Shown here: piece after piece, positions 4,363-53,200 of the stretch
Layout: each line of letters begins with the position of its first letter
Numbering within the stretch: the first letter of the stretch is position 1
Assembly (NCBI GenBank): GCA_017609985.1
Contig: JAFCCW010000010.1
Coordinates: forward strand, 1,765-65,764
Direction of reading: 5' to 3'
DNA length: 64,000 nt
Source of the DNA: Candidatus Iainarchaeum sp.
Lineage (GTDB): Archaea; Iainarchaeota; Iainarchaeia; Iainarchaeales; JAFCCW01
The notes under the pieces: generated by a model
What the model was told of the DNA's origin: nothing
Database searches by the model: none
The model's input: only the letters and a program-made list of their open reading frames with translations
Made by a program: the position numbers and the translations under genes

Positions 4363-4376
4363 GTATACATAACAAA

Positions 4377-4850
4377 TTATTTTCTTCTTCTCGGCGCAGG
4401 TTTTCTTTTTCTTTTAGTTTTCTTTTTTGTTGCTATTGCCTTTCTCAAAGCATCTGCCTCTTTTGTCCTTTTTGGTCTTTGAAGAATAGTTCCCGCATCG
4501 AAAGATTTCATTGTAGCATCTAATCTTCTGCTTATTGCTTGTATTTCATTAGCGTGGTATTTTCTCTTTTCTGTATTTCTTGTTTTGTACATGCTTAAAA
4601 GAGCTCTTGCCTGAGCAGTAATTAAACCCTGTACTGCATGGAGTGCAACATTTGCTTCCTTAATTTTTTTTGAATCTCTTGATTTTGTGGCTTTTTCAAG
4701 TTTCACTAAAACTTCTCTTTTTGATTCCCAAAGCTTTTTTTCGATGCCTTCGGAGGCAAGGAAAGGTTCTCTTAAAAGTTGTGCTCTGCTTGTTTTTGAC
4801 AGGCTCTCAAGGAAAGCATCATTTAAATTTGATTCTGTTTCTTGTTCCAT
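4377..4850 (-). CDS. hypothetical protein with highly basic C-terminus
   Basis: 157-aa ORF ending KKKTKRKRKPAPRRRK. Confidence 0.6.
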   Translation of the reverse strand: MEQETESNLNDAFLESLSKTSRAQLLREPFLASEGIEKKLWESKREVLVKLEKATKSRDSKKIKEANVALHAVQGLITAQARALLSMYKTRNTEKRKYHANEIQAISRRLDATMKSFDAGTILQRPKRTKEADALRKAIATKKKTKRKRKPAPRRRK

Positions 4851-4933
4851 TCAAAGAATATTGCTTTCTCAAATAAAAGCTTTTCTTAATTCTGCAATAG
4901 TTTTATTGCTTTTTCTCAACAGAATTATTTTGC

Positions 4934-7000
4934 ATGATTAAATCCATCAAGCTAGAGAACTGGAAAACCCATCATTCAACTGAACTGGAATTTGGAAAGG
5001 GAACAAACGTGCTTGTCGGCGAGATGGGTTCTGGAAAGTCAAGCGTGATGGACGCGGTTTCTTTTGCCTTGTTTGGAACATTTCCTGCTTTGAAGAGCAA
5101 ACGGGTTTCAATGGATGAAGTAATTATGGGCAGACCAAACGAAGCTGATTTTGCAAAAATTTGCCTTGAATTTGACTATCGTGAAAAAAATTTCAGAGTT
5201 GAGCGAACAATCAAGCGCGGTGGAAAAGCAAATCAAGCAAGCTTGTATATTGGTGAAAAACTTTCCGCAGGTCCCAAGGTGGGTGATGTCAACGAACGAA
5301 TTTCAAAAGAACTAAGTGTGTCATATGACTTGTTTTCGAGAGCAGTGTACAGCGAACAAAACCAGATTGACTTTTTTTTAAGGCTTAGTCCACGTGACAG
5401 AAAAGAGAAATTTGACGAACTTCTTGACCTAAAGCGTTATGAAACAGCAAGAGCTTCTTGCGTGACTGTTTCAAACAGGCTGGGGCAGAGAGCAAACGAT
5501 CTTAGAAAATTTGTTGAAGACCAAAAAAACGCTTTCTCTGGAAAAGAAACTGAAGAGATGAAAAAACGCCTTGAAGAAAAAACAAGAGAGCGCACGGAAA
5601 CAGAGAACAAGATTTCTTCAGCAAAAAAGATTTCTGCGGAAGCAGACTTGATTTTGAAAAAACTTGAAGAACAAGAATCAGAATACCGTGTTTTTAACAA
5701 TGCATTTATTGCAGGAGAAGCTCGTCTGAAAGAAATGGCTGATGCAATAGCTGAAGCAGAGAAAAAAATCAAAGGACGCTCAATCAAGGAGATTGCTGAG
5801 AAAGTCAAGAAGCTTGAAAAAGAGCTGGATTTGTTAGAAAAGGAAAAGCAGGAAAACAATGAAAAAGCAATTCAGTTGCAAGCAAGAGCTGATGAGTCTC
5901 TTCAAAAAAAATCTGTTGTTGAATCAAAAATAAAAGACCTTGAAAAGCATTTTGCAGAGTTGGAGGGGCTGGGAGCAGAGTGTCCAGTTTGCAAGTCCGA
6001 GCTTGACGAAAAATCAAAAGCTCAGCTTATTGAAGAAAATCAAAGCGAGAGAAAAAAACTTGAAGAAAATTTAGCAGAAGAAACAAAAAAATCAGAAAAG
6101 ATTTTTTTCGAAAAAAACAAGCTGGAAGAAGAAAAAAGCAATTTTGAAAAAAAATTCAGAGAATTGAGCAATTCAGAGAGACAAGAAAGGGAAATACTCG
6201 AAAGTGCAGAAAAGCTTGAAGAAAACAGAAAAAAGTCAGAAACACTTAAAGAAGAACTTGAAAAAACAAAAGAACAGATTAAAGCGCTTTTATTTGACGA
6301 AAAAAAGCTTTCTGAGGCAAGAGAAAAGCTTTCTGAGGCAAGACTTAATCTTGAAAGATTAATAGGACAAGAAAAATCATTAAAAGATGTAATCGAAGAA
6401 ATTGAACATGGCATCAAGCTCGCTAAAAAAGCAAGAGAGCATGTGAAAAAATCTGAAAAAGAGGTTTTGCAACTTGAAGAAATCAAATCCAAGCTTGAAC
6501 TCTTTCGCGCCTCACTTATTGCTACTCAGGCAGAATTAAGGGAAACTCTTGTTGAAGGTGTTAACTCTGCAATGGACACTGTTTGGCAGAGGATTTATCC
6601 ATACCAAGACTATGTTTCTGCAAGAATGGAAATAGAACAGGGAAGTTACGAGCTAAAAGTAAAAACAAGGTCTGGTGCTTGGGTCAGAGTAGAGGGTATT
6701 TTGAGCGGGGGGGAAAGAAGCGCTGCTGCTCTATGCATTCGCATTGCATTTTCTCTGGTTCTTACTCAGAATCTTAGCTGGTTAATTCTTGACGAGCCAA
6801 CTCACAATCTTGATAGCAATGCTGTTCGCAAGCTTAGTGAAATGCTTCGTTCTCAGCTTCCAGAAATGGTTGAACAAATATTTATTATCACGCACGACAA
6901 AGAAATGGAAAAAGCAGCTTCTTCAAATCTTTATCTAATGCAGAGAGACAAAGACAACGATGGCACAACAAAGCCGGTTCTTCAGCAGATAGAGCACTAG
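4934..7000 (+). CDS. rad50: Rad50-type SMC/ABC ATPase
   Basis: Walker A GEMGSGKS, coiled coil with central CPVC zinc hook, LSGGE signature, LILDEPT, ITHD. Confidence 0.88.
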   Translation: MIKSIKLENWKTHHSTELEFGKGTNVLVGEMGSGKSSVMDAVSFALFGTFPALKSKRVSMDEVIMGRPNEADFAKICLEFDYREKNFRVERTIKRGGKANQASLYIGEKLSAGPKVGDVNERISKELSVSYDLFSRAVYSEQNQIDFFLRLSPRDRKEKFDELLDLKRYETARASCVTVSNRLGQRANDLRKFVEDQKNAFSGKETEEMKKRLEEKTRERTETENKISSAKKISAEADLILKKLEEQESEYRVFNNAFIAGEARLKEMADAIAEAEKKIKGRSIKEIAEKVKKLEKELDLLEKEKQENNEKAIQLQARADESLQKKSVVESKIKDLEKHFAELEGLGAECPVCKSELDEKSKAQLIEENQSERKKLEENLAEETKKSEKIFFEKNKLEEEKSNFEKKFRELSNSERQEREILESAEKLEENRKKSETLKEELEKTKEQIKALLFDEKKLSEAREKLSEARLNLERLIGQEKSLKDVIEEIEHGIKLAKKAREHVKKSEKEVLQLEEIKSKLELFRASLIATQAELRETLVEGVNSAMDTVWQRIYPYQDYVSARMEIEQGSYELKVKTRSGAWVRVEGILSGGERSAAALCIRIAFSLVLTQNLSWLILDEPTHNLDSNAVRKLSEMLRSQLPEMVEQIFIITHDKEMEKAASSNLYLMQRDKDNDGTTKPVLQQIEH

Positions 7001-7482
7001 TTTATTTTTCCATTTTTGCCAACAAAGCCAAGTTTTTTGTTATCCTTGCTTCTAAAGACTCTTTTGGTTACTTCTCTTTCAAGATTGGCACCATAAATTT
7101 TGCGAAGTTGCCCAATAACCTCTGCAACTTCTGCTTTTCCTCTTAACAATCCATTTTCTTTCGCAAGCTCTGCCATTGCAATCATTGAATTTTTATAAAC
7201 AAGACCTGCTTTGATTCCAGAGATTAGTTTTTGTATGTCAATTTTTCCTTTTGAATCAGTAAAGCGCTTTGCAATTTCGGAAATTTCTTCTTCCGTAAAA
7301 ATTTTTGAAATAAAATTTCGCACATTTGTTTCTCGCTCTCTAATAGAGGGATATTCATCCCATCTGAACAGCAATCTGATTTTATCAAGAGGGACAGACT
7401 CAAAAATATTTATTTCATTATATTTTGGGACGCGACCATATTCTAATTCTCCCAGAATCTTGAAGTTCCCCTTATTAACCAT
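6997..7482 (-). CDS. hypothetical protein
   Basis: 161-aa ORF, convergent with rad50; start uncertain. Confidence 0.5.
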   Translation of the reverse strand: MVNKGNFKILGELEYGRVPKYNEINIFESVPLDKIRLLFRWDEYPSIRERETNVRNFISKIFTEEEISEIAKRFTDSKGKIDIQKLISGIKAGLVYKNSMIAMAELAKENGLLRGKAEVAEVIGQLRKIYGANLEREVTKRVFRSKDNKKLGFVGKNGKIN

Positions 7483-7562
7483 TTGCTGAAGAACTGCCTG
7501 ACTCTTGCTCTTGGAGAAAGCCTTGTCATAAGAAAATAAGCAAGGTGTTATATAAAAAACAG

Positions 7563-7751
7563 CTAGTTTGCGTCTTTAATCATTCTGGAAATATAGCCTG
7601 CCATGATGTTTCTGTCGTTTTTTGAAAGAGAAAGACCTATTCCGTTAATGACTTCCTTGTTTTTTTCAAAATCCTTTCCAAACTTTTCCTTGTGGTTTTC
7701 TAAGAGATATTCTGCTCTTGATTTGATTGATTTTGGAACAGCTTTTCCCAT
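7563..7751 (-). CDS. rps17e: 30S ribosomal protein S17e
   Basis: DFEKNK and RNIMAGYISR motifs. Confidence 0.92.
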   Translation of the reverse strand: MGKAVPKSIKSRAEYLLENHKEKFGKDFEKNKEVINGIGLSLSKNDRNIMAGYISRMIKDAN

Positions 7752-7759
7752 AAAAACAC

Positions 7760-7963
7760 CTAATTAAGTTCTACTCTTTTTTCTTCACCATTTGGAAAAT
7801 GTCTAATGACTGTGAGCGGAAGAACATTGTCTTCAAGCTCTTTTTTAGCTGTTTCCAAAGGAGTTCCAGCACCTTCTTTTACAAGAGCAGGAGCACCCAT
7901 TGAAATCTGAAGGGCTCTAGCACCTATGAGCCTTGTTCTCTCAAATCTTGTTAAAATTGGCAT
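7760..7963 (-). CDS. rpoK: DNA-directed RNA polymerase subunit K (Rpo6)
   Basis: [22 protein letters not shown] signature. Confidence 0.95.
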
Positions 7964-8011
7964 AAAACCACAAAAAGAGTTTATTTCAAATAAACTTGCA
8001 TTAGATAAGGT

Positions 8012-9559: not shown

Positions 9560-9585
9560 TATGTAAAAGAATGCGTTTCAGTAGC

Positions 9586-9630
9586 TTTTAAAGAAAACGA
9601 AGCTCACGCAGGATTTCCGGTGAACTTGAA
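9586..9630 (-). promoter_or_regulatory. promoter of the degenerate PolB gene with upstream GTTCACCGGAA element
   Basis: minus-strand TTCAAGTTCACCGGAAATCC (9630-9611) and CTTTAAAA TATA at 9593-9586; second variant copy GTTCACTGGAA at 9652-9642. Confidence 0.7.
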
Positions 9631-9654
9631 AGGATGGAAAATTCCAGTGAACTT

Positions 9655-11187: not shown

Positions 11188-11384
11188 TTCTTTTCACCAA
11201 GTTTTTTTCTGAACTTATTAATTGTTTTATCATCAGCCTCTAAAATATATCCCTCAAAACCGCATTCTTCACAATAATAGTTGTTGAAGAAAGCACTTGA
11301 AACCTTCCAAGGAGTAATTGGAATCTTTATTCTCTGCGAACCGCATCTCGGGCAAAATTTTGCAAGCTTTTCTTCTTTTTCCAT
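11184..11384 (-). CDS. small Zn-ribbon protein (CPxCG...CxxCG)
   Basis: FCPRCGS...YYCEECGFEG; lies between nurA and herA and overlaps the herA start. Confidence 0.75.
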   Translation of the reverse strand: MEKEEKLAKFCPRCGSQRIKIPITPWKVSSAFFNNYYCEECGFEGYILEADDKTINKFRKKLGEKK

Positions 11385-11394
11385 TTTATTGCCT

Positions 11395-15910: not shown

Positions 15911-15974
15911 TAAATATTTTTTGAGCAAAACATTTATAATAAAGATAAAAGCCTATAATACTCTTGGTGTGGGA

Positions 15975-16808
15975 ATGACAATATCTTGTAAATATGTTTA
16001 TTTTTCTCTGTTTCTTGTATTGCTGTTGGGTTTTTCATTTTCTTCCCCAATAATAACTGGGTTTGATTTTCCCTCGGAAAAGCTTAATGTTGGAAAAGCA
16101 AAAATTGAAGTTTTTGCAGACAGCAAAAACGAAGTCAAAGAAAAAAATGAACAGAACAACAAAAAAATAACTGTTTTTGAGAGAATAGGCGGGCAATTTT
16201 GCTTGCTTGAAAAATGCGGAAACTGGGTTGATGATGACTGGGATGGATTGATTGATGAGGGATGTCCCTGCAATGAAGGCGAAAAACAGGACTGTGGTTT
16301 TGAAATAGGTTCGTGTTCCAAAGGAGTTCAGGTTTGTTTTGAGGGTCTTTGGAGCGGAGACTGCATTGGAGCAGTACTTCCAAAAGAGGAAGTTTGCGAT
16401 AACCTGACAGATGATGATTGTGATGGGCTAGTGGATGAATGGTGTGGTTTAGGCAGAATTTACTCTTTTGATATTTTTGTAACAAAAGAAAATCTTCTTT
16501 TTGGAATGAAAGTTGTTCCTGATGATTCTGAGGGCGTGTTTGCAAAAATTAAGAACAAAAAAAACCAGGAAGACAGGAATGCGTCATCAACTCAGCTTTA
16601 TCGAGAAAGACACGGAGACTTTGATTTAAGAAGTTTTGAAGGAGAAGGAGTTGAGGAAAACAGTGATTACAATCTTTCAGTTCAATCAGACGCAATCGAA
16701 GAAGGCAGAGCAGAGCATTCTTTCAGAACTTGGCTTGCTTCCTTTGCTGATAAATTCAAAAAGAAAAAAACACAAAAAGATAAAACTAGAATAAGTTCGT
16801 ATACATAA
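15975..16808 (+). CDS. secreted protein with MopE-related Cys/Asp metal-binding repeats
   Basis: signal-like N-terminus; EKCGNWVDDDWDGLIDEGC and EVCDNLTDDDCDGLVDE repeats. Confidence 0.7.
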   Translation: MTISCKYVYFSLFLVLLLGFSFSSPIITGFDFPSEKLNVGKAKIEVFADSKNEVKEKNEQNNKKITVFERIGGQFCLLEKCGNWVDDDWDGLIDEGCPCNEGEKQDCGFEIGSCSKGVQVCFEGLWSGDCIGAVLPKEEVCDNLTDDDCDGLVDEWCGLGRIYSFDIFVTKENLLFGMKVVPDDSEGVFAKIKNKKNQEDRNASSTQLYRERHGDFDLRSFEGEGVEENSDYNLSVQSDAIEEGRAEHSFRTWLASFADKFKKKKTQKDKTRISSYT

Positions 16809-17299
16809 CACCTTAGGAAACACATTCTTACTCAAAGAAAAAAACTATTTCTCTTTAAAAAATGCTTTTTTCGCCCTTATTTGCCCCCAAAACCCTACCC
16901 CTTGTGCATTAAAAGAAGAAAAAACAATTTTTGGTTTGAATTGCTTTGCTTTATTTCTTAAAAAGTTAGTAATGATAACAAAAATGGTGTTTATTATTTG
17001 ATTTTTGTGTTTGTTTTTTTACTTGTTTATTTCTTGTGGTTGGGAATTTGCAAGTTAGTTGCTGTGCAAACAGAAGAAATAATCAAGGGTGTTGCTCTTT
17101 TGATATTGGTTTCTAGCGCAGGCGACTTGAAAAAACATGTTTTTGCAATCATTGCAAGGAAAGTCTGAGTTTTGATTCTTGTTTGTTGATTTGATTTGTT
17201 TTTTTGTTCTTGAGGGGATTGTTTTTATTGCAATATTGTTCAAATTCGGTTCTAAACCCATAAAAAGTATAAGTATACATAATTATTTTAGTGTTTTTT

Positions 17300-20225: not shown

Positions 20226-20375
20226 TTCTAGACAATTAGTTGGGGAATCTTGAGTTATATCTATTTCTTTTATTTTTTTATTTTATGCAAGTTAGGCAAA
20301 GCCACACTGTACCCATAACCTATTATACATAACAATTTTGGGAATTCTTTTATTCTGCCATGTTCTCTTATTTCC

Positions 20376-21580: not shown

Positions 21581-22212
21581 ATGCCAAAAAGAGTTCAGCT
21601 TTTTCATAGAACACAACCTCATCTTCTTCCACATATTGAAAAGCATGGTTTGTTGCCTCCAACTGGTGCTGCAAGGCATGGCGTGCCAAAGCTTGCTCAG
21701 AACGAGCGAACTGCAGAAGAGAGAAGAAAAGCAGACGAGCTTGTTGACTCTTTTGCTCCGCCTGGCATCAAAATCAGGCGCAAGGGCGCGATTTTTCTGA
21801 GTTTTTCCAATGAGGGGCGTCTTGTTTATGGCACGCCAAATGACAATAGAGTGGGAATCAGTGTCAAGGTTGATCCTAAGAAATGCATGATTTTTGACAT
21901 GCAGACATATATAACAATGTGCAGAGACAGCTTGCAAGGGAAAGAACTATCGGAAAGTCTGTGAGAGAAACTGCTAAAGAAATTGCTCGGTGGTACTGGC
22001 ATACGGCTGTTACGTTAGAGGAATTTCTTAAATATTATGTGAAAAATAAAAAAGGCACAATTTGGCGAAGGAAGCCAGATGCTCCTAAATCTCGGTCAGA
22101 CGGCAGTCTTTTTCCTGATGGTTTTTACTGGCCCGAAGCTCTCGCAATGGAAAAAATTGAATCAGAATATGTTACGGTTAGGAACCCAAAAATAAAAAAT
22201 CCAAAAAAATAG
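21581..22212 (+). pseudogene. ADP-ribosyltransferase-like (Tpt1/DarT-type motif) protein split by a frameshift near 21940
   Basis: LFHRT...IEKHGLLP and AIFLS in the first ORF, distal PE in the overlapping second ORF. Confidence 0.5.
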
Positions 22213-22433: not shown

Positions 22434-22796
22434 AAAACAAAGCCAAATTATACATAACAAATAACTGGTTTGTTTCGCTGTAGTTGTCTCTCCGCACAAG
22501 CAATAGATTAAGCATCTGGCTTAGTTTGGGAGAAAATTCTTCTTTTTCTTTCCCTTTTTGCAGTTTTTATCAAAATCAAGCCCCAGTTTATACATAACAC
22601 TCTAACCCCTTTTCTTCCAGTAAAACTATCAACATCGGAATAATCTGCAATTTTTGCAGTCCGAACCCCGTCGCTTCCATTAATTCTTTCAAGATTGGAA
22701 TAATGGCTAAACAGTTGAAAAACTGCGTTTAATCGCTCTTTGCTAGCCAAATACGGCAGTTTAGGGGCTTCTTCCTGTATTTGCTCCCCTCACAAG

Positions 22797-22824
22797 ATGC
22801 AGGATAATACACATTATCCTGCAA
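22797..22824. other. Xer/dif-like recombination site
   Basis: ATGCAGGATAA-TACACA-TTATCCTGCAA: 11+6+11 bp with ATAA-N6-TTAT core, intergenic. Confidence 0.75.
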
Positions 22825-22952
22825 AATTCCCTCGTAAAATATTGGATTTTTGTAAAAAACAGTGTGCGTTTTTGGGTTAGTTTGAGCTGGTTTTTGGTTT
22901 GGGTGGGGGGGGCCTCGTGCCCAAAACAGATTCAGGTTATGTATAAGTCAGT

Positions 22953-23237: not shown

Positions 23238-23421
23238 ATTTCTTCTTTTAATCTCAGCTCTTAACCAAGGAGCTTCCCTAACTGGTTTTTTCGTTGAGAT
23301 GTGTGTTTAGTTAGGTTTTTTTGGTCAAAAAACAAACCCATTATGTATAATATGGCTACATAACGGGTTTTGATAAATCTAAATACTGAAAAACTTCACA
23401 ATCTTTATTCTTTTTTTTTGG

Positions 23422-24243: not shown

Positions 24244-27213
24244 TTGCAACGCGGAATTTTTGTTGCAGCAGCGCTAGCTTTGCTTGTTCTGCTGTCTGGC
24301 TGTTCCACAAAGCTTTCGCACGAGGAGAGGATGCTCTGCATAGAACTCTCTTCTCAGGCAAAAGCTGCGGTTCCGGAATGCGACACAGAACAAGAATGTT
24401 ATGTAGAATTAGAGTCTTCTTTGTTTAATTTTTCTCCTGCTGGCTTTACTCCTGATGGGGAAAAACTGTTCTATAACTTCAAAAACGATGTTGCATTAAG
24501 CTGGCTTTACTTTAATCGCGCAAGAGACAATGCTGGGGAAATCAATTCAATCTGCTCCGCTGACAAGGGCTATGCTTCTCTTCCTCGGAATGTAAATGAA
24601 TTCAATTCCAACCTGCTTAAGGCATTTGAATACTCTGATTTAGCTCATTCAAAAGCATTTGCAATAATTGCAATTGATTATTTTTTCTTGGATTCTGAGG
24701 AAATTCATCTTATTCGTGAAGAACCTTTGTATGATTCTTTTCTTGTTTTTGGAAAAAATCTTTCTGATTTTCAGCTAAAAAAATCTGGTTCCACGAGTTT
24801 TTCTTCAATTTATTTCTCGCGTTTCTCTGACTTTCAGAAAAATTCTTCTTATTCTCTTCTGCCTGTTTTTGTAAAGGAATCATCTGTTCTTGGATTGCTT
24901 GGAAAATTTGACTCTCATCTTGTCAAAGAAGCTGATTTGGGCAAATTTTGGATGCCTATTTTTTCTTCTCTTTTCTCGGATTCAGTGAATTTTTTTATTT
25001 CTATTGAGAACACGGGCAATGCAGTTTCTGCTCTGCGTCAGTTTCCTAGCAACAGTTTGATGCAGGCTTACTCTGGTTTTGTTGGAACAAAAGATTCTAG
25101 TCTGGAAGAATTTTCTGCTTTAATGAGCAATCGCTCTTCTTCTTTTGAGGAAATTGAAAAACGAAACATGGTTCTCAAGGAAAGCATTTCTGAAACTTTC
25201 TCTAAAACAAGCTCAAAAATAGATTCTGTTTCTGCAGGATTTTCTTTTGAGAAAGGATTCATTAAAGAACTTTATTCTGACCTTAACTCTGGTTTTGAAA
25301 TTTCTTCAAAACAGTATTCAATTTCTGATCTGGAAGAATTTTCTTCTGATGCAGAATCAACTTTTTTTGACTTGGAGCGGGAGCTTGCTGAAATAAATTC
25401 TCTTGAAAATCTTTCAGAAATTTCTCTTGGTTCAAAAACAAGCAGACTAAAAAATCTGAATGCTGACTCGATCGAATTGCTTGAAAGCATTAACTATCTT
25501 GAAGAAGAAGTTTTGCAGGGTCTGCTATTGCTTTGTGAAAACCGGGTTTCTTCAATTTCCAATTTCCTGAATAATAATTCTGATTCTCTGTCTGAAATGC
25601 AGAATCTCTCTGATACAAAATCATTGCTTTCCTATTCTGTTTCCAAATTTGAATCTGCTGAATCCCAACAAATCAAGCTTGTTGAATGCAGTAAATCCAT
25701 TGCAAGCCTTAATTTGTTAAAACAGGCATTAGCTGATTATGAAATCTACAAACTTTCTTTTTCTGAATCTGTTGAAAAATGCTTTTCTCGTATTGAATTA
25801 ATTCTTTCAAATCCTGTGTTTTCTGAGCTGGAATTGCTTGAATTCAAGCAACAGTTTCTTGCACTCAAACAGATTTCTGAGACTGCAGAATTTGAAAGCA
25901 TTTCACGGCAATGCCTTTCTCTGAAAAAACGAATTTCAGTTTTTATTCATTCAGCGAAAGAAATCCATGCTATTGAAAATGATTTCAAAGAACTTGAATT
26001 GCTTTACTCTGAGTTTTCAGAGCTTCAAGACAAGCTTTCTATTTTTTCTAAGACAAGCTTTGCTAATGCTGAAACTGCTTTCAAGAAACTAAAATATTCT
26101 TTTTCCGAGCAAGGGCTTAATTTAACAGAATCTGAATCTATTGAATCTCTCAACAGCCAAATTTCTGAGTTGAAGTCATTTATTGATTTAGAAATTTACG
26201 ATCAGGTTCTTGAAAGCATTCGCTCAAGAGCCTATTGGACAGGGGATGAAAACAATAAGACTCTTGTTCTTGAAAATCTTGTTTATCCTTTGAAAACACA
26301 GGCAATCATTGAACTGCAGTCTCAATCAAATCTTGTTCCCTCTGCTTTTTCTTCAAATATTTCCAAAGTCAGATTGCTTGATAACAGCCTCTTAATTGAC
26401 TTGAATTATATTCCTCTCGGTTCAACAGTCATCAAATTTGATAATTTTGATAATAATTCTAGTTTGCAGGATTCAAACACTCTTCTTGAACCAAAAATCC
26501 TTGACTTTGGCCAAAATTCTGAAAAAATACTGGCTGCAAGGCTTGTTTCAGACAAATTTTCAAAAAACCTTGACTCTCTCTATTTACTAAGGGATGTTCT
26601 GATTCCGGAAAAAGTTTCTTTTTTCAGAAAAATATTTGCAGGCACTTCTCCGGAGGAAATGGTTGAAGCAAAGTATATTCCTCCTATTTCTAGTCTCAGG
26701 CTGGAAAAAATTGAACAAGAGTCAATTGAATCTGTTCCAATAACTCTTGCTAGAGACTTTGCAGACTTTGAAAAAGCAGTTTTGGAGGAAAACTGGCTTG
26801 AAGCAGCAAAAATTGCTGAAAAAAGAATGCCTGACCTTGAATCAAAGCTTTCCCTGCTTTCTTCTCGCGAAAAAGAGCTTTCAATAGCTTCGGATTCAGT
26901 AAAAGAAGAAGCAATTGCCTCATATAACAATGCCGTGGCAAAATTCAATGTCTCGCCCCCTAATCAGGATGCAGAGAAAGCAATTCAGGAAGCTGAGGAA
27001 GCAATTAAAGAAAATTCTCTAATGCAGTCAATTCTTCTTTCAAGAAATGCAACAGCTCTTCTTTCAGTTCCAGAGCCAGGAAACCTGGTTGTTCCCTCTG
27101 CGATAATTATTTTAGTCATTTCTGCCTTGCTTTTGTTTTTTGTAAAATACAAACGCAAAAAAGACAGCCAAACAAGAAAAGGCTTTGTGAAAAAGATACT
27201 GAAAAACTGGTAA
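24244..27213 (+). CDS. large Ser-rich exported protein with lipobox-like N-terminus and C-terminal TM anchor
   Basis: LLSGC lipobox; C-terminal VPEP + hydrophobic helix + KYKRKK. Confidence 0.75.
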   Translation: MQRGIFVAAALALLVLLSGCSTKLSHEERMLCIELSSQAKAAVPECDTEQECYVELESSLFNFSPAGFTPDGEKLFYNFKNDVALSWLYFNRARDNAGEINSICSADKGYASLPRNVNEFNSNLLKAFEYSDLAHSKAFAIIAIDYFFLDSEEIHLIREEPLYDSFLVFGKNLSDFQLKKSGSTSFSSIYFSRFSDFQKNSSYSLLPVFVKESSVLGLLGKFDSHLVKEADLGKFWMPIFSSLFSDSVNFFISIENTGNAVSALRQFPSNSLMQAYSGFVGTKDSSLEEFSALMSNRSSSFEEIEKRNMVLKESISETFSKTSSKIDSVSAGFSFEKGFIKELYSDLNSGFEISSKQYSISDLEEFSSDAESTFFDLERELAEINSLENLSEISLGSKTSRLKNLNADSIELLESINYLEEEVLQGLLLLCENRVSSISNFLNNNSDSLSEMQNLSDTKSLLSYSVSKFESAESQQIKLVECSKSIASLNLLKQALADYEIYKLSFSESVEKCFSRIELILSNPVFSELELLEFKQQFLALKQISETAEFESISRQCLSLKKRISVFIHSAKEIHAIENDFKELELLYSEFSELQDKLSIFSKTSFANAETAFKKLKYSFSEQGLNLTESESIESLNSQISELKSFIDLEIYDQVLESIRSRAYWTGDENNKTLVLENLVYPLKTQAIIELQSQSNLVPSAFSSNISKVRLLDNSLLIDLNYIPLGSTVIKFDNFDNNSSLQDSNTLLEPKILDFGQNSEKILAARLVSDKFSKNLDSLYLLRDVLIPEKVSFFRKIFAGTSPEEMVEAKYIPPISSLRLEKIEQESIESVPITLARDFADFEKAVLEENWLEAAKIAEKRMPDLESKLSLLSSREKELSIASDSVKEEAIASYNNAVAKFNVSPPNQDAEKAIQEAEEAIKENSLMQSILLSRNATALLSVPEPGNLVVPSAIIILVISALLLFFVKYKRKKDSQTRKGFVKKILKNW

Positions 27214-27226
27214 TCATTATGTATAA

Positions 27227-28435
27227 TTACCCTTTAAAGTGGATAAACAAGTAGATTCCTGCTCCAACCAGTAAAAAGAATCCTGCTGCGAAAATAAGTG
27301 GTTCTATTTCTTGTTCTTCAAATGCAATGCTTGTCCCATCGCATACTGCTGTGTTCCCATCCATAAAACTAATCTCACAGCCTATTTTATGGTCTCCTTT
27401 GCTGTTTCCTCTGGCAGTTATTGTATATGTTGAACTTTCTCCTGGCCCAAGATCTGTTATGTATAATCTGTTTTCTGATATTTCAAGCCCGGTTTCTGGA
27501 TTTAGTTTGATTTCTGCTTGTTCCACACTCCAGTTTCCTGAATTAATAACTTTTATCTCTATTTGTGTGCTGGCGCCGACATTAAATATTTCTCCTTCTT
27601 TTCCAAAACTGGTTGTTAATTCTTTTTTTGGAGCACTAACCCAGATAAGAGGATAATTTGATTTTAGCTCTTCTTTTTCTCCAAAAATGTTTTTGTAGCT
27701 TGCGGATGCTGCTGGCAAGGTAATTCTTGAAACAATATTTGGTCTAATTGAATAATTTATTTCCTTTGTTTCTCCTGCTCCTATTGTTCCAGTCCATTCT
27801 CCATCCCCTTTCAGGACATCAAAAATAACTATGTCTTTGATTTCTTCAAAAAGAGGTCTCATTCGTTTAATTGTGATTTCTCCTGCTTCACTTCCTGAGT
27901 TTTTTATCTTGATTGAAATCTCTATTTCCTCTCCTTGTTCAGGATTTTTTTGAGAAACTGTTTTTTCAAAGCCTTCAAAATAAGGCTGGAGATAAGCTCC
28001 GATAAAGGATGTGTTATTTACAACAATATTTGTTGTGGTATTTGAAGTAATTCCACAAATTCTTAGCGTGTTTTCTTCCAGTATCTGGCTTTTGTCAAGA
28101 AGGATTCTTTGCCAGCAGTTGTCTTCTTCGCAGTGCATATCTCTTATGTATACTTTGTTTTCTTCGCCTTGGTTCAGTTTAATGCTTGCTCCGGCAGTAT
28201 CGCTTTGGAGAGGTGAAAATGAGATATTAATTGAAAACAAGGGGTACAGCCCTTCTTTTGTTAAATCAATGTTATTTGGATATAGAAAATTCCAGTAGGC
28301 GCAATTTTCAATACTTGCCCCGTCTGATTCAATGCTTTCAAAGCCCATCTCTTGAAAAGAGCGTTCAAAAACTGTTTCAGCTGATGCTGTTGAAAAAAAC
28401 AACGCAATTGCTAACAGCAGACAAAGCCTTTTCAT
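27227..28435 (-). CDS. surface protein with CARDB/BatD-like Ig domains
   Basis: signal peptide, ISIKIKNSG and IKVINSG...DLGPGES repeats, C-terminal TM. Confidence 0.75.
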   Translation of the reverse strand: MKRLCLLLAIALFFSTASAETVFERSFQEMGFESIESDGASIENCAYWNFLYPNNIDLTKEGLYPLFSINISFSPLQSDTAGASIKLNQGEENKVYIRDMHCEEDNCWQRILLDKSQILEENTLRICGITSNTTTNIVVNNTSFIGAYLQPYFEGFEKTVSQKNPEQGEEIEISIKIKNSGSEAGEITIKRMRPLFEEIKDIVIFDVLKGDGEWTGTIGAGETKEINYSIRPNIVSRITLPAASASYKNIFGEKEELKSNYPLIWVSAPKKELTTSFGKEGEIFNVGASTQIEIKVINSGNWSVEQAEIKLNPETGLEISENRLYITDLGPGESSTYTITARGNSKGDHKIGCEISFMDGNTAVCDGTSIAFEEQEIEPLIFAAGFFLLVGAGIYLFIHFKG

Positions 28436-29172: not shown

Positions 29173-29446
29173 TAAAAAAAACCCAAATTAGGCTTTTTTT
29201 TAAGTATGGGTAAAACAGGAGGATTTATAGGAAAAAAGAGCTTCAAATTAGCCTTTTTTCTTATGTATATTTTTATTTTTTTGCGGGTTTTTTAAAAATT
29301 TTTTTTGGGAAAAAATAGCCGTTATGTATATTTGTGCTTTAAAGAAATAATCTATTTCCTTAAGAAACAGAATCTAATCTTGTTGGTTTTATGTCTGTGA
29401 ATTGTGTTCTTTAAGTAGTTTTTTTCTTTTTCTGCTTGTCTTCTTT

Positions 29447-37750: not shown

Positions 37751-39868
37751 ATGCCAAAACAAAAAATAATAAACAAGGTTCTTTCTGCAAACAATTTTCC
37801 TTCTTTTAATCCAATGCAGGAAAAGGTTGGCAATAACTCAAATTTTAACAAGAGCCTTGTTGTTTCTTCTCCAACTGCTTCTGGCAAGACAGTGGTTGCA
37901 GAACTTTTCTCACTCTATTCAATTCTTGTTCAGAAAAAGAAAGTTATTTACACTTGTCCTTTGCGCGCTCTTGCTTCGGAGCACTTTCGCGATTTCAAGA
38001 AAAAATATTCTGATTTAGGAATTCGCTTCACTGTAAGCACAGGCGACTTTGACTCAACCAGTAAATATCTCTCCAATTATGATTTAATTTTCACAACCTA
38101 TGAAAAGCTTGATTCTCTTCTCCGGCATCGGGCTGACTGGCTTTCTCAGGCTGGCTTGCTTGTTGTTGACGAAGTGCACGAGCTTGACTCGGACAGGGGA
38201 GCAACACTTGAAATGGTTATTACAAAAATGCGTTCCAATTCTCGCCTGCTTTCAGTTCTTGCGCTCTCAGCAACAATTCCTAATGCAAAAGAACTTGCTG
38301 ACTGGCTTGAAGCAGGTCTTGTTGAAAGTGATTACAGGCCTGTTAAATTAGAGGAGGGAGTCCAACACAACGGTTATGTAGAATTTCCTTCTGGCTCCAA
38401 GCTTTTTCTTAATAACTTGTCTGACCCAATTCATTCTCTAACCCTTAACACTCTCTCTCTTGGAAAGCAGCAGCTTGTTTTTGCTAACACGAGGAAACGG
38501 GCTGAGTCAATCGCAAACCAGCTTGCGCCCAAGGTTTCAAAAACTCTTTCCAAGGAAGAAATTGACTTGCTTGAAAAAAAATCAAAAAAGATTCTTTCTG
38601 CTCTTGAACAGCCGACTGAACAGTGCAAAAAACTTGCTTCTCTTGTAAAAGAGGGTGTTGCTTTTCATCACGCTGGACTTGTTCAAAAACAAAAAACAGT
38701 TGTTGAGGATTCTTTTCGAGAAAATCTTATCAAGCTAATTTCTTCTACTCCCACGCTTGCTGCTGGAGTCAATCTTCCAGCACACACTGTTGCTATTCCT
38801 TCTCTTTACAGATACACGTTTTCCGGAATGCAACGCATTCCTGTTCGTGAATACAAGCAGATGGTGGGCAGAGCTGGCAGACCAAAATATGACAAGCAGG
38901 GCAGAGGAATTGTTTTTGCAAAAAACGAGTTTGAAGCAGAAGAGTTGATGCAGAACTATGTTCTTGGAGAGCTTGAAGAAATCCAGTCAAAGCTCGGAAT
39001 AGAACCTGTTCTTCGCACTCACCTCCTTGCATTGATTGCTTCCAACTATGTTTCAAGCCTTGATTCTGCTGAAAAATTTTTCTCAAAAACATTTTTTGCA
39101 AAACAGTTTTCCGGAGCAAGCGAACTCTTTTCAATGATTTCTGATATTATTGCCGAGCTTTCTGAAATAGGTTTTGTGGAAAGCAATGAAAATAGTTCTG
39201 GTTTCAAAGCAACTGCTCTCGGCAACAGGGTTTCAGAACTTTATCTTGATCCTATTTCTGCAAAGCAGATGATTGATTCATTGCCTGAACTGGACGGCAG
39301 AGGAAAAGAGTTTGCAATGCTTTTTTCTCTTTCAAACACTTTCGAATTTGCGCCCTGGGTTTCTGTCAGAAAAAATCTTGAACCAGTTATCTGGGAAATG
39401 ATTCAGGAAAGGCAAGAGCATCTTCCAATAAATCTTGAAACTGAAATGTATTCTGATCCAAGTCTTCTTCAAAAATTTTATTCTGCTCTGCTTCTCGAAC
39501 AATGGGTTGAGGAAAAAGGAGAACAGGATATAATGAAGGAATTCAATGTTCAGCCAGGAATCCTTCACGCAAAACTCATGCGCTGTGACTGGCTTGCTTA
39601 TTCTCTCAGCGAACTCGCTCGTCTGACAGAAAACAAGCGTTTACTGAAACCACTTCATGTTCTGAGAAAGCGCTTAAAGCACGGAGTAAAAGAAGAGCTT
39701 GTCATGCTCACAGAGGTAAGGGGAATTGGGCGAGTAAGAGCAAGAAGACTGTGGAGAGCAAAAATCAGGTCTGTGTCTGATCTCAAAAAGGCTGACGAGC
39801 AAGATCTTGCAAGAGTTGTGGGTGCAAAAACAGCTGTTTCAATCAAAAAAAGTATTGGGCAAAAATAG
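37751..39868 (+). CDS. hel308: Ski2-like DNA helicase Hel308/Hjm
   Basis: PTASGKT, DEVH, LSAT, FHHAGL, TLAAGVNLPA, QMVGRAGRP, C-terminal HhH GIGRVRAR. Confidence 0.93.
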   Translation: MPKQKIINKVLSANNFPSFNPMQEKVGNNSNFNKSLVVSSPTASGKTVVAELFSLYSILVQKKKVIYTCPLRALASEHFRDFKKKYSDLGIRFTVSTGDFDSTSKYLSNYDLIFTTYEKLDSLLRHRADWLSQAGLLVVDEVHELDSDRGATLEMVITKMRSNSRLLSVLALSATIPNAKELADWLEAGLVESDYRPVKLEEGVQHNGYVEFPSGSKLFLNNLSDPIHSLTLNTLSLGKQQLVFANTRKRAESIANQLAPKVSKTLSKEEIDLLEKKSKKILSALEQPTEQCKKLASLVKEGVAFHHAGLVQKQKTVVEDSFRENLIKLISSTPTLAAGVNLPAHTVAIPSLYRYTFSGMQRIPVREYKQMVGRAGRPKYDKQGRGIVFAKNEFEAEELMQNYVLGELEEIQSKLGIEPVLRTHLLALIASNYVSSLDSAEKFFSKTFFAKQFSGASELFSMISDIIAELSEIGFVESNENSSGFKATALGNRVSELYLDPISAKQMIDSLPELDGRGKEFAMLFSLSNTFEFAPWVSVRKNLEPVIWEMIQERQEHLPINLETEMYSDPSLLQKFYSALLLEQWVEEKGEQDIMKEFNVQPGILHAKLMRCDWLAYSLSELARLTENKRLLKPLHVLRKRLKHGVKEELVMLTEVRGIGRVRARRLWRAKIRSVSDLKKADEQDLARVVGAKTAVSIKKSIGQK

Positions 39869-48976: not shown

Positions 48977-50194
48977 ATGGCTAACATTTTTGAAGAAGCT
49001 CTTTCAAAAAAAACAGTCTTTTGTGACAGGGACATAATGACTCCGCACTATGCTCCAAAGAAGCTTCCGTTCAGAGAAAACCAGATTTCTGAAATGACTT
49101 CAACTCTCTCTGTTTTAATTGAATCAAAGAGAGCAGACAATCTTTTCATTTATGGCAAAACAGGAACTGGCAAGACTGTGAGCACAAAGCATGTTCTTCA
49201 ACAGCTTTGTGAGTATGCTGACCAGAAAAAAAAATCTGTAAGAAGCACTTATCTTAACTGCAGAAGCCACAACAGCAAGTACAAGATAATAATCAAGATT
49301 TTGAAGAGTTTTTTTCCAGACAAAGACTTTGTTGGTTACAGTGGAACATTTGTGTATGACAAGCTAATAGAGAACATTGAGGAAAGTCAAGCAAGTCTTG
49401 TTATTGCTCTTGATGAAATAGATAAAGTAAAAGATCTTGATGAAATGGTTTATGCTCTTACAAGATGCAATGACGACATGGACAAGGGTTCGATTTCTTT
49501 GGTTGGGATTTCAAACAATCTTTTCTTCAAAGACCGTCTTGATCCGAGAACAAGAAGCAGTCTTTGCGAAAAAGAACTTGTTTTTCCACCATATAATGCA
49601 GAAGAACTTTCAAAGATTCTTTCAGATCGTGTAAAAACAGCTTTTAAGGAAGATGTGGTGGAGGAAAGTGCAATAAGCATTGCTTCAGCTATTGCTGCGC
49701 AGGAGTCAGGGGATGCAAGAACAGCAGTAATGCTGATGTTGCGTGCTGGGGAAATTGCTGACAAAAAAGGTCTTGACAAGATTACTGATGTGGAGGTTAA
49801 GAGAGCAAAGCGCAAGGTTGAAGAAGAAATAATTTTCAACATGGTTTCTACTCTGCCTGAACAGCAACAGCTAGTGCTTTATGCCATTGCTCGTCTGACA
49901 CTTCAAAGAAAAGGAATTAAAAGAATTTCACGAGTTGAAGAAGAACCAGTTCTTGTTTCAGGAGAAATCTATGATGAATATTCCCGAATTGCAAAAGAAT
50001 TCAAGGGAGAAACTGTGAGCATGCGCTGGTGCCAGCAATACGTCAATGAACTCGAAATGTATGGCCTTATTGCAACAACTGAATCAGGCAAGGGATTCAG
50101 AGGAAACACTCGTCTAATAAAACTCGGATTTGATGCAAAAAAAATAAAGACAGCGATTGAGAAAGAAATAGGTTTTTCTTCACAATCTCTCTGA
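48977..50194 (+). CDS. cdc6: Orc1/Cdc6 replication initiator
   Basis: LPFRE, YGKTGTGKT, LDEID, LDPRTRSS, FPPYNAEEL, GDARTA, C-terminal winged helix. Confidence 0.95.
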   Translation: MANIFEEALSKKTVFCDRDIMTPHYAPKKLPFRENQISEMTSTLSVLIESKRADNLFIYGKTGTGKTVSTKHVLQQLCEYADQKKKSVRSTYLNCRSHNSKYKIIIKILKSFFPDKDFVGYSGTFVYDKLIENIEESQASLVIALDEIDKVKDLDEMVYALTRCNDDMDKGSISLVGISNNLFFKDRLDPRTRSSLCEKELVFPPYNAEELSKILSDRVKTAFKEDVVEESAISIASAIAAQESGDARTAVMLMLRAGEIADKKGLDKITDVEVKRAKRKVEEEIIFNMVSTLPEQQQLVLYAIARLTLQRKGIKRISRVEEEPVLVSGEIYDEYSRIAKEFKGETVSMRWCQQYVNELEMYGLIATTESGKGFRGNTRLIKLGFDAKKIKTAIEKEIGFSSQSL

Positions 50195-50233
50195 TTGTTG
50201 TACTCTTTGTGCTACACACAAACTCAAAATTAA

Positions 50234-53200
50234 TTAAACAAACTCAAAAAGCGAAGACTGCTTTTCTTTGTCGTCTACAAAAATTGAGTCAATCTCGCAT
50301 TCAACAAGTTCTATTCTTTGTTTGAGATAGTCCCTCAAACCATAGTTATGTATAACTTTCTTTGCTATTTCCAGATATTTTCTTACTGAACCCTGTGCTA
50401 TTGTCAGAATAAGATTTCCTTTCGGGCACCTAGTGCAGTTTCCTGTCAATGGAATTCTTCTATATTTTGAATTGCAGTTTGTGCACCTGAAGCTCTGTCT
50501 TGAAAAAGCTCTTGCGTTTCCAATAATGTCTGGAAAGAAATGGCTTGCTAAAACCCGTTCAATCGAGTCTTTGGTATCGACTGCTTCAATTTTTGTCTGC
50601 AATTCTGCTTGAGCAGTAATTTTGTCTTCCATGCTTCCCAGTTGAACATATTTGCTGTATTTTGGCCCTTCATCAAAAGCAGTGGTTTCATGAGTGTATC
50701 CTAATCCAGAGTATTGTTCTTCTTTTCCAAGGCGGTCGTGAACTTTTTCAATTCCTGCTATTGACGCAACAACTCCTTTCTTCATTGTTTCTTCATATAA
50801 TTCCAGGGGATATTTCCAGCAGGTTTCCATGTCATAGACTTCATCATCAATTTCTGTTGGCTTAAGCATTACTGTGAAAACAAGCGGTGCATCCATTCTT
50901 CCTCCTCTTGACTCTGGCAGATAAGAATGTGAAAAATTAAGCAGCCCATCCATTAACAGCATAATTGAATCTTGGTCGCCGTCAATATTTCTTCTTTTTG
51001 TTTGATGAAAGTATGGGTGAGCAAAGCAGGCTCTTGCCTTTGTGAATCCAAGAATTCGTCCAACAATTGCTGCTGAAGTATGGGGTGCTAGTCCAAGAAC
51101 AAGCTGGCCTACAAGATCTGTTCTGGTTTTAAATCTGAAAAATGGTTCAAGAGAATAAAACTTTTCCAGTTCATCATCCACAAAGTTTGAAACCTTGACA
51201 AAAAAGTCTCCCGCTTCATCGTGAATAATTATGTCTTGCGGAAATATTTCAATTATCTGGTCTTCTCTTTCAATTCTTTCTCCGTGAATATCTTTTTCAT
51301 AACCTAACTCTTTGACTTTTTCAAGACTTATCTTTATTTCTTTTGGTTTAAAATGAGTTATCGGCGCATTAATGAGTTCGTATCTAATTGTACCGTCTCT
51401 GAAAATATTTATTCCATGCCTTGCTCTCAAAAGACCTTTTTCAATTGGTTCGCAAACTTTGTCTTTGTTAATTGTTCCTTTTACCCCCTTTACTAGTTCC
51501 GGCACAGTTATTCCAAGTTTCTTTGAAGCTCGACTAACATATTCTTCCAATTCTATTTTTCTTTTGCTATGTGGTTTTGTTTCAGAACCACATTTTGTGC
51601 ATTTTTCTCCAAAAACATGTTTTTCACACTTTGAACACATGTTTACTTTTTCACTTCTTTCTCCGCAAAAAGGACAGCTTGGAAAGCAGATAATTTTTTC
51701 ACATTTTTTACAATAATAAGAAGTTATGTCCACTTCCAATCCCTTGGATCCCGCGGCTCTTTCCTTGTCAATTGCTTTGTTTATTGACCTTGTATTTCCT
51801 CCAAAAAGTCCTATTGGAAACAGAACATGTGGATTCCCAGTCATCTTTCTTGGAGTAGAAGCTTCTGGTCTTCCCATTCTTCCTCCAATAAAAGTTCCTG
51901 CTTTGTCAATTATCTTGAATTTTGAAACACTGTTAACTAATTCCAGAGAATTTTCTCCACTCATTTTTTGCTCTGTCTTGTTTTCAAGTCCAAGGCTCGC
52001 AGTCAAAGCTCTTGCTATATCTTCTTCTATCACAATCTTATCGTCAGTTACTCTGTGTGGGATTCCTGCTTTTTCAAGAGATTTTTTAGATTTTTCTTCT
52101 TTTTCAAATTCAATTGTTTCTCCTAAATTGCCTTTTTTTATTTCAGCGACAAGCTCTTTCAATTCATTTGCCTCGAGCAAGGAATAATAAAAAATATATC
52201 TTGGGTGGAGTGGAATTTCGTGTTTTTCTGACAAATATTCTGCTGTGCTCCAGTCAACTTCAAGTGGATTCTTTATTGCTTTTTCTTCCCTTTCGCCTCT
52301 TTCCTTTGCTTTTTTTTCAAGTTCCAAAGCCCACCATTCTTCACAATAGCCTACTCGAACAAGAGGGTGAGCTGAGTGAATGAAATCTCCTACTGGTGCA
52401 AGAAGGTCTCCTAGGAACAAAATCTTTTCAACCCTGCTTCTTAACTCTATTGCCTGTGCAGCAGTTTCAATTCTTAGCACACTACCGTCATCAAGTCTTA
52501 CAATTGGTCCGTCAATTGAAGAGCAGGCAGCCATCCCAGCTGCTTTTCCCGGTCTCTCTCCCTTTAATTGGGTTGAAACAGCAATAAATTCATTCAAAGC
52601 ATACATTGTTGCCGGATGAATTGCTTCCCCCATTGTACCCATGTTTCTTCCCCTTCCATATCTTAGTCTAAAACCACCTGGTCTTGAAGGATATGCAAGG
52701 ATTGGCCTGCCAGCAGCAATTCCGTTCAAAAATTTGTCATTTGGGCTTATTTCAAGTTCTTGTGATTCAGATTTTCCAACTTTTATAATATCTTCAAGCC
52801 AGCTCCAGTCAAGTTCGAGCATTTTTGCATATTTCATTATCTTTCTTGCCTTTAATGCAACACCCTCGCTTATCACAAGGCACATTCCTCCCCTTATCCT
52901 GTTTGTTGGAATTCTTGGAACATTTTTGTGAACTGCCACCTCTCTCTTTTCCGTTGGCTCTCCATTAATGCATACTTTGCATCCTTTTGCAATTTTTCTA
53001 ACCTCTTCTTCAGAAAGCTTATACTGTCTTGAAACAATTTCTTCATAAATACTGCATTCTTCAACATATCTTTCAATTTCTTCTTCTGTTGGCTTGTATC
53101 TATCCAAAGCCATTAATTCTCTAGCATAGTCTCCAAGGATAAGAGGAAGCACTGTTGCTGTTCCGCCCGCGGCTCTAATCGGTCCAGCATAATATATGTC

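Follow-up and report, generated by a model that had tools for sequence, protein, structure and literature searches.

The words known as KOPS, which go with FtsK in Escherichia coli, and SRS, which go with SpoIIIE in Bacillus, are short, over-represented, skewed to the leading strand and inverted at dif. The Xer sites cer and psi have accessory protein-binding DNA 100–200 bp from the core recombination site. For archaea, skewed words of 4 nucleotides (nt) termed ASPS (GTTG, GTTC and TGGT), which point at dif, have been described in Thermococcales (Cortez et al. 2010, PMC2958812), in a paper that also gives the dif format of bacteria and archaea as two 11-bp arms and a 6-bp spacer. A boundary element surrounding dif in T. 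kodakarensis stalls Smc-ScpAB through TrmBL2 (Yamaura et al. 2025, PMC11840125). How archaea without FtsK bring their dif sites together and limit XerA to the resolution of dimers has been open since archaeal Xer/dif was described, and the sole guide proposed for archaeal dif so far is a weak 4-nt skew. Here we describe a 9-mer, TATACATAA, found in a 64,000-nt stretch of a Candidatus Iainarchaeum genome (the window; contig C18, positions 1765–65764, of assembly G000), and its variant TCTACATAA. That, across an order of DPANN archaea, this word is polar with respect to the replichores and its copies meet at the terminus, on a dif-like site that is conserved, seems secure.

The window holds 14 exact matches to TATACATAA, six on the + strand (up to 22589) and eight on the − strand (from 22937), exactly as a first-pass annotation of the same DNA had listed them, and none of 100 dinucleotide-preserving shuffles reached 14 (mean 0.18, maximum 2). 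That annotation had all 14 copies pointing toward a 28-bp palindrome at 22797–22824. They do, and with the variant included the figure is 16 of 16 on contig C18, with the strand switch bracketed by 22598–22936. Its claim that twelve copies crowd near the site stands in the form that 12 of the 14 lie between 16800 and 29330, and a C directly follows the word in nine of 14, again as it had reported. The palindrome occurs once in the assembly and is set between convergent genes, inside a stretch of about 740 bp without long open reading frames (ORFs). G000 itself comprises 1.164 Mb in 37 unordered contigs and is 86.6% complete. The comparison drew on relatives of the Iainarchaeum lineage, labelled Woese-, Pace- or Nanoarchaeota, among which only G016 is complete (a single contig of 1,241,428 bp, rated 99% complete). 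Genes were called crudely as longest ORFs, and single assignments may be wrong.

Over the whole G000 assembly, 41 copies of TATACATAA were counted against 5.0 expected from a fifth-order Markov model, and among 9-mers with at least 15 occurrences the word ranked first in excess, ahead of the tRNA T-loop word. The expectation rose to 13.2 at order 6 and 31.0 at order 7, because higher-order models contain sub-words of the 9-mer and so take up part of its excess. All nine positions were specific, in that single-base variants were at background in G000 except for TCTACATAA (24 observed, 5.7 expected), and the word was searched as T[AC]TACATAA, i.e. TATACATAA plus TCTACATAA. This gave 65 copies in G000 and 56 in G016, or about one per 20 kb. 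In G000, a T preceded 30 of the 41 TATACATAA copies and a C or T followed, and T-runs were frequent on the 3' side. Of 21 genomes representing different families of the order, 19 have the 10-mer TTATACATAA, and in 15 of those 19 it is at least two-fold over its backwards control. No exact match is present in G012 or in most members of families f3, f5 and f32. Copies were also concentrated at the terminus, with 13 of 65 within 10 kb of the site in G000, which is 1.7% of the assembly, and 11 of 56 within 20 kb of the switch in G016.

Three other identities of the word were rejected. A repeat family or mobile element was discarded, the similarity around copies ending at about 11 nt; so was a generic TATA box or promoter, since 38 predicted tRNA genes commonly show a TTTAAAA/TTTTAAA-like box about 28–35 nt upstream; and structured RNA likewise, a search of the window with Rfam and ARAGORN having given one tRNA only.

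Polarity was assessed in five genomes of the order. Beside the 16 copies of contig C18, 52 of 56 copies in G016, 20 of 22 on G001:C2, 28 of 31 on G018:C1 and 14 of 15 on G015:C1 were aimed at a single switch point, giving 130 of 140 in total. Wrong-way copies thus amounted to none of 16 on contig C18 and 10 of 140 over the five genomes. The further switches were equally sharp, at 223521|223747 (G001:C2), 73555|73903 (G018:C1) and 140983|141246 (G015:C1).

A trivial source of such polarity would be the orientation of neighbouring genes, with the word acting as a promoter or terminator element, or the base composition of the strands. Genes do broadly converge on 22.8 kb of the window, where both the GC and the AT skew change sign, six G000 copies overlap a same-strand stop codon or come within 10 nt of one, and T-runs often follow the word. 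The account is nonetheless hardly credible. Only 54–55% of the gene bases on either arm of contig C18 share the strand of the motif, as against 16 of 16 copies, and contig C8 carries no + and five − copies although its 41 ORFs divide into 26 on + and 15 on −. The 45 G000 copies inside genes are on the gene's strand in 25 cases and opposite to it in 20, while 54 of 57 copies match the majority orientation of their own contig or contig arm; 20,000 simulations with random orientation averaged 38 agreeing copies and never exceeded 48. In G016, five of the six copies opposed to their own gene still follow the chromosome arm, and a sense-strand terminator would not be expected inside 19 same-strand genes. 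As to composition, the word has C, not G, on the G-rich strand, and ordinary purine-rich coding-strand words of G016 reach a skew of 60–76% only, compared with 93–96% for the word. On arms drawn from the GC-skew minimum to the palindromic site, TCTACATAA is 26:1 and TATACATAA 26:3. Local gene orientation therefore fails to explain the polarity of the word.

The complete chromosome places the convergence point. In G016, copies are on the + strand from 187 kb to 963,874 and on the − strand beyond this, starting at 964,219 and running across the contig ends as far as 55.7 kb, with four exceptions (544112, 840939, 861645 and 979451). The switch, 963874(+)|964219(−), lies on the plateau of the cumulative GC skew, whose maximum is at 1025 kb in the raw and 955 kb in the detrended curve, and the genes flanking the switch converge on it. 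By the usual convention the convergence point is the terminus, because it lies on this plateau. The skew minimum was found at 135 kb (raw), inside the bracket of the − to + switch, or at 285 kb (detrended), and the cumulative gene orientation has its minimum at 283 kb and its maximum at 855 kb. Copies are thus shown to sit on the leading, G-rich strand of each arm, pointing from the origin side to the terminus.

Two further observations concern G016. The word AAAAGGGCA is distributed 31:2 toward the leading strand and may be a second strongly polar word. At G016:C1:283150–283400, an A+T-rich spacer of 250 bp between divergent genes has two pairs of direct repeats of about 30 bp; it coincides exactly with the minimum of gene orientation and of detrended GC skew and is a possible origin. 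The Orc1/Cdc6 genes of G016 are at 839.7 and 1127 kb, with none near this spacer. An ORB-like (origin recognition box) sequence was rejected as a marker of the G016 origin, strict matches being confined to two at the xerA locus and one at 283.6 kb, which is inside a gene.

The copies and associated elements of the window are as follows, by position.

4364..4372, + strand: TATACATAA copy pointing right, occupying most of the 14 nt that separate two convergent genes (an EF-1beta-like ORF with its end at 4362 and a − strand ORF ending at 4377)
16800..16808, + strand: TATACATAA copy that provides, with its TAA, the stop codon for ORF 15921–16808
17274..17282, + strand: intergenic TATACATAA copy, 17 nt away from where an opposite-strand ORF ends
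20324..20332, + strand: intergenic TATACATAA copy, upstream of a glycosyltransferase ORF
22449..22457, + strand: TATACATAA copy within the 740-bp non-coding terminus region
22589..22597, + strand: innermost left copy, TATACATAAC, which marks the long side of the module, 199 nt from the dif-like site (locus L107)
22606..22626, + strand: box CCCCTTTTCTTCCAGTAAAAC, the window version of CCCCCACACTTCCACTAAAA, which is present in the modules of many relatives
22797..22824, no strand: dif-like site, ATGCAGGATAA TACACA TTATCCTGCAA, in 11-6-11 format with arms complementary at 10 of 11 positions
22825..22842, no strand: conserved box abutting one dif arm, reading acgagggaatttt on the − strand where relatives have tcccttcgtaatttt
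22937..22945, − strand: innermost right copy, TATACATAAC, which marks the short side, at 112 nt from the dif-like site, and lies 7 nt beyond the stop codon of ORF 22953–23237
23341..23349, − strand: intergenic TATACATAA copy
24399..24407, − strand: TCTACATAA variant in a + strand gene for a lipoprotein-like surface protein, following the arm and not the gene
27217..27225, − strand: TATACATAA copy filling a 13-nt spacer between convergent genes
27457..27465, − strand: TATACATAA copy inside same-strand ORF 27227–28435
28144..28152, − strand: TATACATAA copy inside the same ORF, 27227–28435
29261..29269, − strand: TATACATAA copy, second of two in tandem, with 61-bp spacing, downstream of the FttA gene
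29322..29330, − strand: TATACATAA copy, first of that tandem pair
38374..38382, − strand: TCTACATAA variant in a + strand Hel308-like helicase gene, following the arm
50346..50354, − strand: TATACATAA copy within the 3'-terminal part of the PolD DP2 gene, lying 152 nt beyond where the Orc1/Cdc6 gene ends

The pattern recurs around a conserved dif-like site in related genomes. An 11-6-11 palindrome with an ATAA-N6-TTAT core was present in the switch gap of all five long-contig genomes, in a weaker form in G015; examples are TTGCTGTATAA TAGCAG TTATACGGCAC in G016 and TTGACGTATAA TGGTTA TTATACGACAT in G001. The innermost opposed copies are 217–339 bp apart in these genomes. In a survey of 196 genomes of the order, many of them fragmented assemblies, a convergent pair of words with a gap of 321–381 nt was found in 33, whereas the backwards control gave none and the divergent arrangement one. 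A gap of 261–320 nt added 29 further genomes, with two for the backwards control. Each positive genome has exactly one such locus, and the 62 of 196 are a lower bound, given that shorter gaps were missed (217 nt in G001, 254 nt in G015 and about 170 nt in G021). The convergent pair was also found in six of 19 genomes outside the order but in the same class. A strict dif test (arms at least 7/11, core at least 7/8) was passed by 40 of 61 convergent-pair loci, and 47–49 of the 61 have a recognisable dif-like site by a looser one. The consensus of 94 arms reads T-T-A-T-[AGC]-C-N-G-C-A-[TA]. When the window's own arms were used as the query (TGCAGGATAAT-N4-ATTATCCTGCA, at most three mismatches), none of 20 relatives matched; this query is too strict, and it is the dif-like consensus that is conserved. 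The site shares with archaeal XerA/dif systems its inverted 11-6-11 repeat, its single copy, its intergenic position at the terminus and a genome that encodes XerA.

The dif-like site lies off-centre in this module, about 110 nt from one innermost copy and about 190 nt from the other. The nearer distance is mostly 98–101, 108–113, 117–121 or 128–131 nt and the farther one mostly 168–171, 178–180, 186–190, about 199, 209–213 or 222–227 nt. A period of 10.4 bp fits best on both sides (Rayleigh R 0.64 and 0.41), and these steps are suggestive of helical phasing of the innermost copies with dif. The short side carries two conserved boxes, tcccttcgtaatttt abutting the dif arm and GCCACCCCCACACTTCCACTAA, the latter lying between the flanking motif and dif in many genomes (short sides of L079–L139; window 22606–22626). 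By eye, the reverse complement of the GCCACCCCCACACTTCCACTAA-type box resembles a mini-ORB half followed by a G-string. A box of this kind, TTAGTGGAAGTGTGGGGG, has AGTGGAA in common with the Pyrococcus mini-ORB TTCCAGTGGAACT as given in PMC1904270 and a G-run, without the TTCC half, and Orc1/Cdc6 might act at the terminus module through it. 

Free-standing LAGLIDADG endonuclease ORFs overlap the long side of the module in seven of 32 compared loci (L080, L088, L096, L098, L102, L104 and L105), and in two of them (L088 and L104) it continues through the copy of the word that flanks the module; two that were scanned (225 and 243 amino acids, aa) matched PF00961. Gene order from 24244 to 64000 of the window is conserved, inverted, at 826–859 kb of G016:C1 and stops at 24.2 kb, which is 1.4 kb from the dif-like site; the terminus module therefore lies at a synteny break.

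We propose, at about even chances of being right, that the word is a one-way signal read by an asymmetric DNA-binding protein, which steers or halts a DNA-tracking process at the dif module, and that the innermost copies belong to the XerA complex. A sequence-specific protein of this kind would read T[AC]TACATAA in one direction only; the tracking process (a DNA pump working at the FtsZ septum, or else the replisome) would be steered toward the terminus module and would be stopped at this stretch of about 300–390 bp, where XerA would resolve chromosome dimers. The two innermost copies, when bound, would form part of the recombination complex. The same reader probably also acts at the promoters of ftsZ and of a PRC-barrel gene beside xerA. 

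A Ter-like polar fork trap would arrange the same sites differently: the bound word would let origin-side forks pass and block those from the opposite side, the innermost pair would confine fork fusion to about 340 bp holding dif, and the outer copies would serve as back-up. Opposed polar sites around the terminus, densest there and thinning toward mid-arm, are known from Tus-Ter and RTP-Ter, and the closeness of the innermost opposed pair (217–339 bp in the five long-contig genomes) and the position of the switch on the GC-skew maximum agree with such a trap. We nevertheless hold it to be rather unlikely. No Tus or RTP homologue was found in the five genomes searched, the word is 9–10 bp long where Ter sites exceed 20 bp, and roughly one in four of the right-arm copies in G016 falls within the origin-proximal half. 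Moreover, the GC-skew peak is a broad plateau where a tight trap should give a sharp apex, and a barrier has no need of helical phasing with dif. Steering of the kind known from KOPS is favoured over a pure fork trap.

Besides the terminus, copies recur at fixed places beside particular genes. Two copies 62 bp apart, about 100–160 nt upstream of the ftsZ start, were found in three genomes of three families, the gene being recognised by eye on the basis of the N-terminal sequence it encodes. A stretch resembling BRE (B recognition element)/TATA adjoins the proximal copy, and about 40 nt downstream of that copy are conserved. The best tyrosine recombinase of G000, which is XerA-like, matched PF00589 with an E value of 2.4e-49; its G016 homologue is 61% identical. 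At the xerA locus two copies point at the 3' end of xerA, followed by a PRC-barrel gene (PF05239, E 2.5e-9) and one copy facing the other way, an arrangement shared by G000, G016 (14 kb from dif), G010 and G009. The loci are located as follows.

G000 C37:34581 and 34643, − strand: ftsZ-upstream pair, with counterparts at G016:C1:399795/399857 (L002) and on G019:C1 (L008)
G000 C25:107299–108920: xerA locus (L109), xerA itself at 107988–108920, with its counterpart at G016:C1:977754–979500 (L004)

The pair downstream of the FttA gene (window 29261/29322) is syntenic with a four-copy array in G016, and copies stand beside the Orc1/Cdc6 gene in both the window and G016. Among 70 xerA loci of more distant DPANN archaea, whose XerA is mostly 39–52% identical, there were five stray copies, none within 490 nt of the gene end, and neither a shared word nor an adjacent dif was found at these loci.

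Some features of these loci were noted in passing. The G016 xerA locus also has two inverted TAGTGGAAGTGTGGGG boxes, and that of G000 is flanked by an A+T-rich stretch of about 150 bp. Four tandem copies spaced by 61, 61 and 62 bp occur at G018:C1:169836–170028, and a spacing of about 61–62 bp is shared by the copies at ftsZ, by those that lie downstream of FttA and, in G010, by those at xerA. A conserved ORF of 44–51 aa (KxLCxxLxxGGxxLxD) with its own BRE/TATA comes immediately after the FttA-associated motif array, on its downstream side (window 28990–29124 on the − strand; G016:C1:852705–852860).

The fixed local copies and the strong intergenic bias are the main grounds for thinking that the reader is also a gene regulator. 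Taken alone, they would suggest that the word is the site of a transcription factor of division or the cell cycle, its polarity arising secondarily as selection removes the orientation that collides with replication. The ftsZ-upstream pairs of G000, G016 and G019, with the proximal copy at a BRE/TATA-like stretch, fit such a factor, as do the copies flanking the PRC-barrel gene in the four genomes named above, those beside Orc1/Cdc6 and the arrays downstream of FttA. As a full account it is improbable, considering that genes contain 25 of the copies in G016 and 45 of those in G000 and that two window copies fill convergent spacers of 13–14 nt, which leave no room for a promoter. A regulon predicts neither a single-copy convergent pair phased around dif, as seen in at least 62 genomes, nor a density gradient toward the terminus, and the generic TATA box of these genomes is TTTAAAA-like, unlike the word.

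The clustering of copies near dif and next to xerA also bears on a further possibility, namely that the word is a half-site of XerA itself, comparable to the XerD-binding XDS sites of bacteria described in PMC11840125, at which XerA monomers bound near the terminus would act on chromosome organisers. The form TTATACATAAC has the inner TTATAC in common with the dif-arm consensus and scores 4.66 bits on the 94-arm matrix, in the top 0.18% of genomic 11-mers, real arms ranging from 2.1 to 15.9. However, the equally polar TTCTACATAAC, which is the commoner innermost copy, scores −2.2 and has another base where 92 of 94 arms have A; the word lacks the outer G-C-A seen in the dif arms, and no SMC hinge was found in the six genomes searched. 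We regard this explanation as very improbable, and XerA is a weak candidate for the reader.

The genes around the module did not point to another. No family occurs in more than seven of 32 module loci, and a conserved neighbour was rejected as the reader, the most frequent being the LAGLIDADG endonuclease (7/32) and a cyclophilin-like protein (6/32), with the other families having no Pfam match. The window ORFs near the dif-like site (21919–22212, 22953–23237 and 23422–24135) likewise had no Pfam match, and a 989-aa neighbour of the window module looks like a lipoprotein-anchored surface protein. HerA had been named in the first-pass annotation as a speculative candidate. The window does encode it, and it adjoins NurA, with Rad50 a few kb away on the opposite strand; nothing observed here ties HerA to the motif. 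This repair cluster (4934–12492) has Rad50 with a zinc hook on + and HerA (9655–11187) and NurA on −, and a 515-aa ORF without Pfam match (8012–9559) is placed where Mre11 might be expected. Elsewhere in G000, C23:70533–73517 (−) encodes an SMC/Rad50-like ATPase of 995 aa that carries a CPVC zinc-hook motif at its centre and gives no Pfam match for an SMC hinge. About 260 nt upstream of this gene, the only SMC-like candidate seen besides the Rad50 of the window, there is a copy of the word. At C25:153877–156948 a secretion/archaellum-type ATPase is split by an intein with a LAGLIDADG-like block (by eye).

Several points weigh against a one-way signal that steers a tracking process to dif. On the protein side, FtsK_SpoIIIE (PF01580) gave only sub-threshold P-loop/Walker-A matches in six of six genomes; of three such matches in G000, one is an intein-bearing secretion/archaellum-type ATPase (by eye) and one is the 995-aa SMC/Rad50-like protein. 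FtsK_gamma (PF09397) had no match in G000, the sole genome searched for it, and SMC hinges (six genomes) as well as Tus (PF05472) and RTP (PF02334; five genomes each) were not found in any genome searched. Copies show a strong preference for intergenic DNA, which makes up about 10.6% of G000 yet has 20 of its 65 copies, and which has 31 of the 56 in G016; the promoter-like pairs upstream of ftsZ and beside xerA resemble a transcription-factor site. Polarity on a complete chromosome comes from one genome, G016, whose arms would be unequal (about 829 and 412 kb), whose GC-skew peak is broad and whose origin-side switch is placed only between 55.7 and 187 kb. Short-side distances are nearly unimodal, and periods of 9 and 12 bp also score. 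Finally, switch points were first taken from the motif itself and dif was sought afterwards, and the genomes are mutually related, so that locus counts and Rayleigh values are not independent.

The first-pass annotation had read the motif as the target of a polar protein, be it a translocase guide, a fork barrier or a terminus organiser, and had named four ways in which this could fail: comparable numbers of wrong-way copies, no enrichment over background, polarity explained by gene orientation, and no such pattern in relatives. Its reading survived all four tests and is supported, and the overlay with GC skew that it had suggested put the G016 switch on the maximum plateau. More tentatively, and perhaps rather less probably than not, the word may belong to an FtsK-independent system of DPANN archaea, spanning at least one order and part of a sister group, in which a novel family of reader would mark the direction of the terminus over the entire chromosome, form, by means of two phased copies, the architectural core of the XerA/dif complex and, by way of the paired copies at ftsZ, the PRC-barrel gene and xerA, couple chromosome resolution to FtsZ division.

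A discrete word with bacterial-grade polarity (93%), a density gradient and a single-copy module in dozens of genomes make the question of how FtsK-less archaea handle dif experimentally approachable. The word can be used as bait for its reader protein, and the module is testable with purified XerA. In fragmented DPANN assemblies the word also serves in practice to mark where the terminus lies and how contigs are oriented. If it is true that the reader controls ftsZ as well, a direct link between resolution and division would exist in organisms that cannot yet be grown alone.

Compared with described systems, the word is closest in its working to KOPS/FtsK or Ter/Tus, yet fails both on the protein side. 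Like KOPS and SRS it is skewed to the leading strand, denser toward the terminus, inverted at dif and independent of gene strand. In contrast to KOPS it is A+T-rich rather than G-rich and strongly intergenic, its innermost copies are at fixed, apparently phased distances from dif, and pairs also occur at division-gene promoters; no FtsK/SpoIIIE motor was detected in six genomes, and no gamma domain in G000. With Tus-Ter of E. coli and RTP-Ter of B. subtilis it shares opposed polar sites that bracket the terminus with a close innermost inverted pair, but the roughly 56–65 copies per genome extend over whole arms, the word has 9–10 bp instead of more than 20, and no Tus or RTP homologue was found. 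The accessory DNA of cer and psi, at a fixed distance from the core site, is a parallel that would fit helical phasing, although it is one-sided, plasmid-borne and without polar copies over a chromosome.

Among archaea, the functionally nearest parallel, the T. kodakarensis element (PMC11840125), likewise has dif in a long intergenic region between convergent genes, with the flanks rather than dif organising the chromosome; it works through TrmBL2 and Smc-ScpAB, and the relevant section of that paper reports no discrete polar word, whereas no SMC hinge was found here. A description of the TATACATAA word, or of any motif converging on dif in DPANN archaea, was not found in the literature, where the matches listed for the string were in unrelated papers; the supplementary figures of PMC2958812 may show further archaeal ASPS curves. 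The statement of the first-pass annotation that archaea have no described polar guide motif was too strong, the ASPS of Thermococcales being already in print (PMC2958812). These, the closest archaeal precedent, are, as presented there, likewise archaeal skewed words with a cumulative skew peak near the dif of XerA and no FtsK. They differ in being 4-nt words that form a compositional skew with rounded curves, while the word described here is 9–10 nt long and position-specific, shows 93% polarity and has copies within about 200 nt of dif.

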